From the sequence record PQ330092: a DNA stretch of 64,000 nucleotides; one strand, written 5' to 3'. Shown one piece after another: positions 11,264 to 12,229 of this stretch. The DNA comes from Escherichia phage JP4. The notes under the pieces were generated by a model, which saw only the letters and a program-made list of their open reading frames with translations, did no database searches and was not told the DNA's origin. Position 1 is the stretch's first letter. Every line of letters starts with the position of its first letter. A program made the position numbers and the translations under genes.

Positions 11264-12229
11264 GTGAAAAAGCTTGATTTAAATACAATTGCCGAAGAAG
11301 TTCTGGATGAATGTTTTGCTAATGAAGAAGTCAACACACTAGAAGCCTTAGATTTCGTTGAAGATAAAGATGATAATGAAGGTAAAGTACAAAGCAGTTT
11401 CAAATATAATATTACACTTAAGCGACCACCAAATGTTTCCAATGAAGATCTAATTCGTGATATTCAAGCTGGTATCAATGTAAAGAAAAACACTGAACTG
11501 TTAGTTCGTTACAATTATGGACTGATTATTGATGTAGCAAGTAAATGTACTTGTTATATCCCATTTGAAGATAAGATTTCATATGGTGTTGAGGGGTTCA
11601 TGAGAGCACTAAAAACCTTTGATCTTAATAAGAATGTTAAGTTCATTACCTATGCTTCTTCTAGTATTTACATGACAGTCTATAACGAAAGTTCTGACGC
11701 TAACTATATGGTACACTTCCCACGTTATATGAGTGTTCATAAGATCAAAGTAAAAAGATTCTGTCAGGAATATATGCGTAAACATGGTGTTCGCCCAACT
11801 CCTGAAATAATCTCAGAGGGTACTGGGATTGAGATTCAGCATGTTAATAATTGTTTGTTATTTCAAAGCGAATACACTTCGCTGGATGCACCATTAGACG
11901 GTGTTACAGATGGTACATTAGGTGACATTATTCATTCACCTGCTTCTGATTTTAACCTCAATGTTGATAGTATCCGTGCACCTTTGCGTTATGCTATCAA
12001 TGAACTGACCAACGAATTGAGTACTAAAGAACGTGAGATTATCCAGCGTGTTCATGGTCTAGGTGAATATGAACCTGAAACGCTTCGTGAGATTGCTGAT
12101 AATGGTTTTGTTGATGATAATGGAAAATATGTTAAATCCCGTTCATCAATACATCGAAAGTACAGTGAAGCTATGCAAAAGCTTAAGAAGTTAGTACTTG
12201 CAAAAGGGTACGAATACGAAGATTTCTAA
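11264..12229 (+). CDS. sigma-70 family RNA polymerase sigma factor-like protein
   Basis: GTG start after aggag SD; region-2-like EDKISYGVEGFMRALKTFD..KFITYASSSIYMTV and region-4-like EREIIQRVHGLGEYEPETLREIADNGF. Confidence 0.75.
   Translation: MKKLDLNTIAEEVLDECFANEEVNTLEALDFVEDKDDNEGKVQSSFKYNITLKRPPNVSNEDLIRDIQAGINVKKNTELLVRYNYGLIIDVASKCTCYIPFEDKISYGVEGFMRALKTFDLNKNVKFITYASSSIYMTVYNESSDANYMVHFPRYMSVHKIKVKRFCQEYMRKHGVRPTPEIISEGTGIEIQHVNNCLLFQSEYTSLDAPLDGVTDGTLGDIIHSPASDFNLNVDSIRAPLRYAINELTNELSTKEREIIQRVHGLGEYEPETLREIADNGFVDDNGKYVKSRSSIHRKYSEAMQKLKKLVLAKGYEYEDF

Follow-up and report, generated by a model that had tools for sequence, protein, structure and literature searches.

A divergent sigma-70-family factor of an Escherichia jumbo phage and a candidate class of middle promoters for it

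The gene at positions 11264–12229 (plus strand) of the 64,000-nucleotide stretch of Escherichia phage JP4 DNA analysed here (PQ330092, in the following called the window) encodes a divergent yet apparently complete sigma-70-family factor with regions 2, 3 and 4, and its product is predicted from the sequence to bind core RNA polymerase and to direct promoter-specific initiation. From the identity of this protein, the early-type promoter of its gene and three promoter classes with their locations, all of which were obtained here, we infer which sigma factor might read which class. The resulting cascade model, in which the host sigma-70 serves the early genes, the product of the sigma ORF the middle genes and a gp55-like sigma the late genes, could in our judgement equally well prove right or wrong.

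The 321-aa open reading frame with a GTG start lies exactly where an earlier note, made from the letters alone, had placed it. It is preceded by the Shine-Dalgarno sequence AGGAG at 11253–11257 (+), read from the sequence 6 nt 5′ of the GTG, and the GTG start as well as the N-terminus MKKLDLN are kept in the homologues. The assignment of the protein to the sigma-70 family, likewise made in the earlier note, is borne out by profile and structure searches alike. The NCBIfam model RpoD_Cterm matches aa 79–283 with E=6e-25, TIGR02937, which models the sigma-70 superfamily, is passed with 44.7 (cut-off 42.9), PHROG_351 ('RNA polymerase sigma factor') covers aa 1–317 with E=1.9e-60 and 206.5 bits, and all 58 PDB sequence matches at E≤1e-3 are sigma factors (RpoD/SigA/SigB/RpoS and WhiG), the best at 7e-17. 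A lack of significant sigma-domain hits, which the earlier note had named as the outcome that would speak against it, is not what was found, as Pfam Sigma70_r3 reaches 37.8 bits against a cut-off of 25.3. The region 2 and region 4 motifs seen in that note were both matched as well but fall just under the Pfam cut-offs, Sigma70_r2 with 23.0 bits against 24 and Sigma70_r4 with 23.8 bits against 24.1, the latter over profile positions 4–28 of 50 only. The AF2 model of the product has a mean pLDDT of 70.9 with regions 2, 3 and 4 confident, and its top 50 Foldseek matches in the PDB are sigma-S, sigma-A and sigma-70 structures, mostly in holoenzyme complexes (best E=3e-11). Purifying selection on the gene is strong, the dN/dS being 0.076 relative to its counterpart in phage ph0011 at 83% amino-acid identity.

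The anatomy of the protein was derived by aligning it to E. coli RpoD and to 12 members of its family, and residues are given in E. coli numbering. The N-terminus (aa 1–49) is acidic and disordered in the AF2 model. Region 2 (aa 80–140; 11501–11683, +), delimited by the Pfam r2 match and the RpoD alignment, keeps F419, F427, T429, Y430, N383, L386, D403, G408, G411 and A415, and is changed at W433S, W434S, R436Y, Q437M, T440Y and R441N, and also at the core-binding positions of region 2.2 (Q406S, E407Y and N409V). Region 3 (aa 162–226; 11747–11941, +), defined by Pfam r3 and the alignment, includes an LGDII 'sigma finger' and carries the changes H455Y and E458V in region 3.0, at the two residues with which sigma-70 reads the TG element. 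Region 4 (aa 251–314; 12014–12205, +) is placed from the marginal Pfam r4 match, the alignment and the AF2 model, and in its part 4.2 the substitutions E585S, R586S, R588H and Q589R leave R584 as the one unchanged residue among the five main contacts to the −35 element. The recognition helix nevertheless aligns with that of RpoD once an insert of 8–10 residues is allowed for at the turn of the helix-turn-helix motif in region 4.2 (12104–12133, +; alignment and DSSP). This insert, of the form G-F/Y-x-D-x-x-G-K, is common to the phage family from the 121Q type to the XbC2 type in an alignment including RaK2, GAP32, CBB, XbC2 and PHA46, and the AF2 model folds it into a beta-hairpin lying between helices, with strands at aa 282–283 and 289–290 (DSSP) and a pLDDT of about 85–88. 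We know of no characterised sigma factor with a beta-hairpin insert in the region 4.2 turn.

Among known sigma factors, E. coli sigma-S and sigma-70 give the best sequence and fold matches and share with the phage protein the sigma-2 and sigma-3 domains, the sigma finger and, as predicted, the sigma-4 domain. In length the protein is close to sigma-S, and unlike sigma-70 it has neither region 1.1 nor the non-conserved region. It differs from both in the loss of W433/W434, in the changes at Q437, T440, H455, E458, E585, R586 and R588, and in the predicted region 4.2 beta-hairpin. The presence of a sigma-2 domain is supported by the RpoD_Cterm and TIGR02937 matches and by confidently modelled helices, in addition to the marginal Pfam r2 match. 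The protein does not qualify as a group 1 primary sigma, for region 1.1 is absent and among the diagnostic residues W433/W434, Q437/T440, H455/E458 and R584/E585/R588 only R584 is kept. The RpoD equivalog models of NCBIfam reach 59–88 bits against cut-offs of 354–779, and the name 'RpoD' given in some records overstates what is known of the protein. Group 4 (ECF) sigmas consist of sigma-2 and sigma-4 only and have no region 3; the phage protein, with Sigma70_r3 over the cut-off and the LGDII finger present, does not belong there. Neither is it a member of the T4 gp55 family, as a PHROG search returned phrog_351 only, and not phrog_234 or phrog_12791. An ORF search of a relative's genome revealed no paralogue of it.

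The loss of the W433/W434 melting pair together with the three substitutions in region 2.2 might be taken to mean that the protein acts as a decoy or competitor on the host core polymerase and contributes to host shut-off without directing initiation. Such a role appears very improbable, since conservation across the family extends to the sigma finger, the residues of the A-11/T-7 pocket, region 3 and the recognition helix of region 4, with a dN/dS of 0.08, and a decoy would have no need of conserved DNA-reading surfaces.

The sigma gene is already known and is a standard annotated feature of the 121Q/RaK2-like jumbo phages. With vB_EcoM_E9.1, an Escherichia jumbo phage of the 121Q/PBECO4-like type, the window shares 99.6% identity, and with 121Q, PBECO4, phAPEC6 and related phages 98–99%. 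The records of these phages, among them E9.1 and 121Q (gene 167), label the ORF 'RNA polymerase sigma factor'; within its first 50 kb, the annotation of E9.1 reads 'hypothetical protein' throughout. At the amino-acid level the protein is 99% identical to those of the 121Q type, 44% to that of RaK2 and 35% to those of GAP32 and CBB, and orthologues with 35–60% identity are present in RaK2, GAP32, CBB and in Erwinia, Yersinia and Xanthomonas jumbo phages. The 'RpoD-like' sigmas of the Rak2-like phages (group 2.2), namely 121Q gp167, those of PBECO4 and phAPEC6, Sharanji WNN14470.1, RaK2 ORF244, GAP32_490 and CBB_513, represent the same gene; they share its early-region position, domain set and region 4.2 insertion, with no substantive difference. 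The gene is named in the papers on phAPEC6, Sharanji, fEgEco12 and UE-S1, and the orthologue CBB_513 was placed in the early region in the paper on CBB. No experimental work on the protein or its Rak2-like orthologues was found in the literature searched. An orthologous frame of about 320 aa with 37% identity is also present in Salmonella phage PHA46 (PP191103.1, 25245–26204), where it has no annotated CDS.

The sigma gene is the last of four tightly packed ORFs behind a promoter of the host sigma-70 type, TTGACA-17 nt-TACAAT at 9990–10018 (+), which matches the consensus at 11 of 12 positions, and this arrangement is in line with the cascade model. No other strong plus-strand promoter was seen between this element and position 11264. 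The three upstream ORFs of 86, 139 and 165 aa (10058–11242, +), which are apparently co-transcribed, belong to PHROG families without assigned function, and the one directly 5′ of the sigma gene (10745–11242) shows a weak similarity to the HslV family of peptidases (phrog_1040, E=9e-6). The unit is closed by an intrinsic terminator at 12235–12265 (+) with a 10-bp stem, a 4-nt loop and a T-run, which is kept in ph0011. Many near-consensus sigma-70 promoters are found in the plus-strand block around the sigma gene, and perfect TTGACA-N16-18-TATAAT promoters number 8 on the plus strand of the window and 30 in the relative. Since the promoter at 9990–10018 is surrounded by such elements, the sigma gene is most simply regarded as an early gene transcribed by the host sigma-70 holoenzyme. 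Further downstream, about 1.1 kb 3′ of the sigma gene, lies an HNH endonuclease gene (13318–14106), and in GAP32 the orthologous sigma gene has an HNH gene immediately behind it.

A second class of promoters, here called class M ('middle'), has the form t(GGGACA/GAGACA)-N13-TG(A/C)TATAAT. Promoter statistics were obtained from OR844650.1, an unannotated genome 97–98% identical to the window, with genes taken from our own simple caller, and class M was found there by scanning extended −10 elements near gene starts. For CBB, supplementary Table S6 of the published study lists the same architecture as TGAAACG-N13-TGnTATAAT, including the promoter of the gp55-like gene of CBB. In the relative's genome, a search for the CBB pattern TGAAACG...TATA gave only 3 occurrences, and because of this scarcity the search was moved to GGGACA-N13-TGnTATAAT. 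A loose form of the class M pattern yields 28 distinct sites in OR844650.1, 27 of them on the gene strand and 24 with exactly N13, compared to about 3 in shuffles, which speaks for the cascade. The genes behind class M promoters include those for an SSB, a primase, two exonucleases, the large subunit of topoisomerase II, a nudix hydrolase and the gp55-like protein. Within the window, a class M promoter GGGACA-N13-TGATATAAT at 23443–23470 (+) precedes the gene 23549–23932, and another, GGGATG-N13-TGATATAAT at 12265–12292 (+), directly follows the terminator of the sigma unit and leads into an ORF-poor stretch; at the equivalent position ph0011 has a perfect GGGACA-N13-TGATATAAT.

This ORF-poor stretch (12293–12790), directly 3′ of the class M promoter, has a GC content of up to 45% compared to about 32% nearby, and relative to ph0011 it is conserved at its ends only. 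It gave no credible Rfam match, its fold z-scores of −1.05 and −1.6 are not significant, and it may represent a non-coding transcript or a decayed gene. Across the window as a whole, zero tRNAs and zero Rfam matches at the gathering threshold were found.

The −35-like element of class M varies between lineages. In TH47, whose sigma is 59% identical and has an unchanged recognition helix, the element is G(G/A)GACA, and between ECO103 and TH47 the class M spacers have diverged while both elements are fixed, which speaks for the cascade. A 50-kb stretch of RaK2 has TGAAC(A/G)-N13-TGATATAAT before the SSB, RNase H and other genes. Set against the region 4.2 helices, the elements pair as RSS(I/L)HRKY with G(G/A)GACA in the 121Q-type and TH47-type phages, RGTLHYKF with TGAACA in RaK2 and KATLSRRY with TGAAACG in CBB, which suggests that the −35-like element tracks the region 4.2 helix of the sigma ORF family, although the correlation comprises three independent states only, a point that counts against the cascade.

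The features of class M do not all point to the same reader. As a sigma-70 promoter, class M combines a perfect extended −10 element with four of six −35 positions, so that the host sigma-70 could suffice for its transcription; moreover, TG and TATAAT hardly vary among the class M sites, yet the phage protein lacks both the TG-reading residues (H455Y, E458V) and W433/W434. Both points weigh against the cascade and make its main rival a scheme in which the phage protein replaces or supplements the host sigma-70 at the consensus-like early promoters, for example upon sigma-70 shut-off or starvation, and the host sigma-70 reads class M via the extended −10 element, possibly aided by an activator at GGGACA in the manner of MotA/AsiA in T4. 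The many strong TTGACA-N16-18-TATAAT promoters in the genome would agree with such a scheme, as would the use of sigma appropriation (MotA/AsiA) for middle genes by T4 relatives. On the other hand, with four of the five main −35 contacts changed and an insert in the helix-turn-helix, the phage protein is unlikely to read TTGACA, and phmmer detected no AsiA or MotA homologue, which is in favour of the cascade. In addition, a GG is conserved in class M where sigma-70 prefers TT (−35/−34), a difference that points away from sigma-70 as the reader, and the −35 element varies together with the helix of the phage protein across lineages. Taken together, we consider the scheme unlikely, even if it deserves serious attention. 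An unrelated activator might also bind at GGGACA, which counts against the cascade.

The third class is represented by promoters of the late type. The exact T4 motif TATAAATA is rare, with 14 occurrences per genome, and the search was for this reason moved to nTAAATA. In OR844650.1, ATAAATA is the top enriched 7-mer of upstream intergenic sequences, being present in 26 regions as opposed to 1.4 expected, and is located 15–60 nt, mostly about 30–50 nt, 5′ of large structural-region genes and also 5′ of the counterparts of the window genes 5313–6467, 23549 and 24202. Within 15–60 nt upstream of starts in this genome, ATAAATA is enriched 16-fold, CTAAATA 10-fold, GTAAATA 7-fold and TTAAATA 5-fold, whereas the 18 other one-mismatch variants of ATAAATA show no appreciable enrichment (0.2–2.8-fold, with ATAATTA as the next best). 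The nTAAATA variants of OR844650.1 precede many non-MLPF genes, including those for proteins of 1841 aa and 1001 aa; an A is preferred 6 nt 3′ of the motif, and no conserved element was seen upstream of it. RaK2 likewise has nTAAATA before major head, tail-fibre and other virion genes, and the T4-like late motif ATAAATA has been reported before structural genes of CBB and GAP32.

In the window, an ATAAATA element at 6499–6505 (−) lies 31 nt 5′ of the ATG of gene 5313–6467, a minus-strand gene annotated as encoding a virion structural protein, and has a TATAAT 3 nt downstream. Ten (T/C/G)TAAATA elements are spread over 40614–53666 on the minus strand (at 40614, 43045, 45497, 46710, 47520, 48756, 50019, 51259, 52438 and 53660), 25–26 nt 5′ of the ATGs of MLPF/RCC1-like genes, each of them after a hairpin GCCAGTACTTGATACTGGC and a T-run. 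The ten genes concerned are nine that start with MLPF and the paralog 44296–45471. They are part of an RCC1-like ('regulator of chromosome condensation') array at 39382–53652 (−) of about 13 paralogs with RCC1 Pfam matches, most of which begin with MLPF(A/G/V)RM and carry their own terminator and late-promoter cassette, and eleven RCC1-like genes were described in the phAPEC6 paper. The gene 46756–47493 has the MLPF N-terminus but no RCC1 match. In each cassette, a terminator hairpin and a T-run are followed by (T/C/G)TAAATA-N3-TATAAT-GAATAAAGGAGG-ATG. A TTGATA within the hairpin, 28 nt 5′ of the TATAAT, was considered as a long-spacer −35 element and rejected, the hairpin and T-run being a terminator.

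In the earlier note the sigma ORF had been proposed to account for the −35-less TATAAT-type elements before the MLPF genes and gene 5313–6467. These elements carry nTAAATA, the T4-type late motif, and fit the T4-type late class; a separate gp55-type sigma in relatives, the retention of region 4 in the phage protein and the existence of a distinct class with a −35-like element likewise speak against the assignment. For a late-gene role of the sigma ORF it can be said that all MLPF cassettes, as well as two non-MLPF late genes (5313–6467 and one other), have a TATAAT 3 nt behind TAAATA, the two non-MLPF cases exceeding chance on a rough estimate of about 0.06 expected, and that part of the A-11 and T-7 pocket is kept (F419, Y430, N383 and L386). 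The excess at the two non-MLPF genes leaves room for some contribution of a −10-type reader. The constant part of the late element is, however, nTAAATA and not TATAAT, which is missing from nearly all remaining late sites, and the conservation of TATAAT within the MLPF cassettes says little because these are recent duplicates. A conserved region 4 would also be needless at promoters without a −35 element, and a gp55-type late sigma exists in 121Q and ECO103 4-12-1. A late-gene role for the sigma ORF is thus improbable.

The gp55-type candidate is a 279-aa protein of the relative that matches phrog_12791 ('sigma factor for late transcription') with E=3e-154 and phrog_234 with E=8e-18. Its gene is present in the close relatives 121Q (gene 591) and ECO103 4-12-1, the RaK2 homologue is annotated as gp55, and the gp55-like protein is 73–78% identical across genera. 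The homologue was found only by phmmer against the ORFs of the relative's genome; tblastn searches of the phage collection with T4 gp55 or Xoo-sp13 gp55 did not surface the 121Q-type protein. The T4 gp55 is a late sigma that reads TATAAATA together with gp33 and the sliding clamp. By homology, the gp55-type protein would be a likelier reader of the late promoters, including those of the MLPF genes and gene 5313–6467, than the sigma ORF, and the late class having a candidate reader of its own is in favour of the cascade. Like the protein studied here, T4 gp55 is a phage-encoded specificity subunit for the host core polymerase, but it is a minimal sigma without region 4; under the proposal of the earlier note, the sigma ORF would function in the manner of gp55.

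In the proposed cascade, the host sigma-70 RNA polymerase would transcribe the sigma gene early from the promoter at 9990–10018. The product would then bind the host core polymerase and direct it to the middle promoters tGGGACA-N13-TG(A/C)TATAAT, where the altered region 4.2, with its changed recognition helix and beta-hairpin insert, presumably reads GGGACA. From the class M promoters, the genes of DNA replication and that of the gp55-type sigma would in turn be expressed; this second sigma by homology with T4 would read the −35-less nTAAATA promoters, those of the MLPF genes and gene 5313–6467 among them. In Bacillus phage SPO1, a sigma cascade proceeds through gp28 and then gp33/34. PMC8948821 describes the sigma of the phiEco32/7-11 phages, which works on the E. 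coli polymerase. The logic proposed here is the same as in SPO1 and phiEco32/7-11, in that an early phage sigma would redirect the host core to later phage promoters, although their sigmas are related to the present one at the family level only, and the second step here would, unlike in those phages, employ a gp55 of the T4 type. The analysis offers a candidate assignment of GGGACA-N13-TGnTATAAT to the sigma ORF and of nTAAATA to the gp55-type sigma. The wider proposition, that a T4-related jumbo coliphage uses its own full-length sigma for middle genes instead of T4-style sigma appropriation, that a hairpin-interrupted region 4.2 reads a lineage-specific −35 element and that the two sigmas form a two-step cascade, is put forward tentatively, with its chances slightly short of even. 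If true, it would constitute a natural case in which two phage sigmas work one after the other on the E. coli core polymerase, and would make available an orthogonal pair of sigma and promoter in which region 4 is unusual.

Several other features of the window concern promoters and repeats. Terminator-promoter composites GGGTTGACTTCGGTCAGCCCTTTTTTGCTATAAT, with −10 hexamers ending at 20729, 23972, 24154, 26582, 31195, 33140 and 34554, have a TTGACT −35 element located inside the stem of a UUCG-loop terminator, 17–18 nt 5′ of the −10 element. Between 60900 and 63700 (+), a run of small ORFs is preceded by near-identical copies of an early promoter unit, GTACTTGCAAACTAAGTTTAAAAGCGTATAATGTTTTACATC; in the relative's genome, this unit mostly has a GC-rich leader stem-loop behind it. 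Copies of the 8-bp palindrome CAGTACTG number 52 in the window, where 0.8 are expected, with a dense cluster at 58723–60382; in the 352-kb relative there are 204 copies compared to about 3.4 expected from composition, and 919 of AGTACT. About 80% of the CAGTACTG copies are inside coding regions, and some represent the spacer end of early promoters (AGTACTG-TATAAT). Twelve copies are found in an ORF-poor segment of 2.5 kb at 57956–60523, which also contains many TTCAGTACTGA repeats and might act in cis, for instance as an origin. An iteron-like array with an 8-bp period (GGATGGCT GGATGGCT AGACGTTT GGACGGCT AAACGGCT ...) is located at about 59570–59700.
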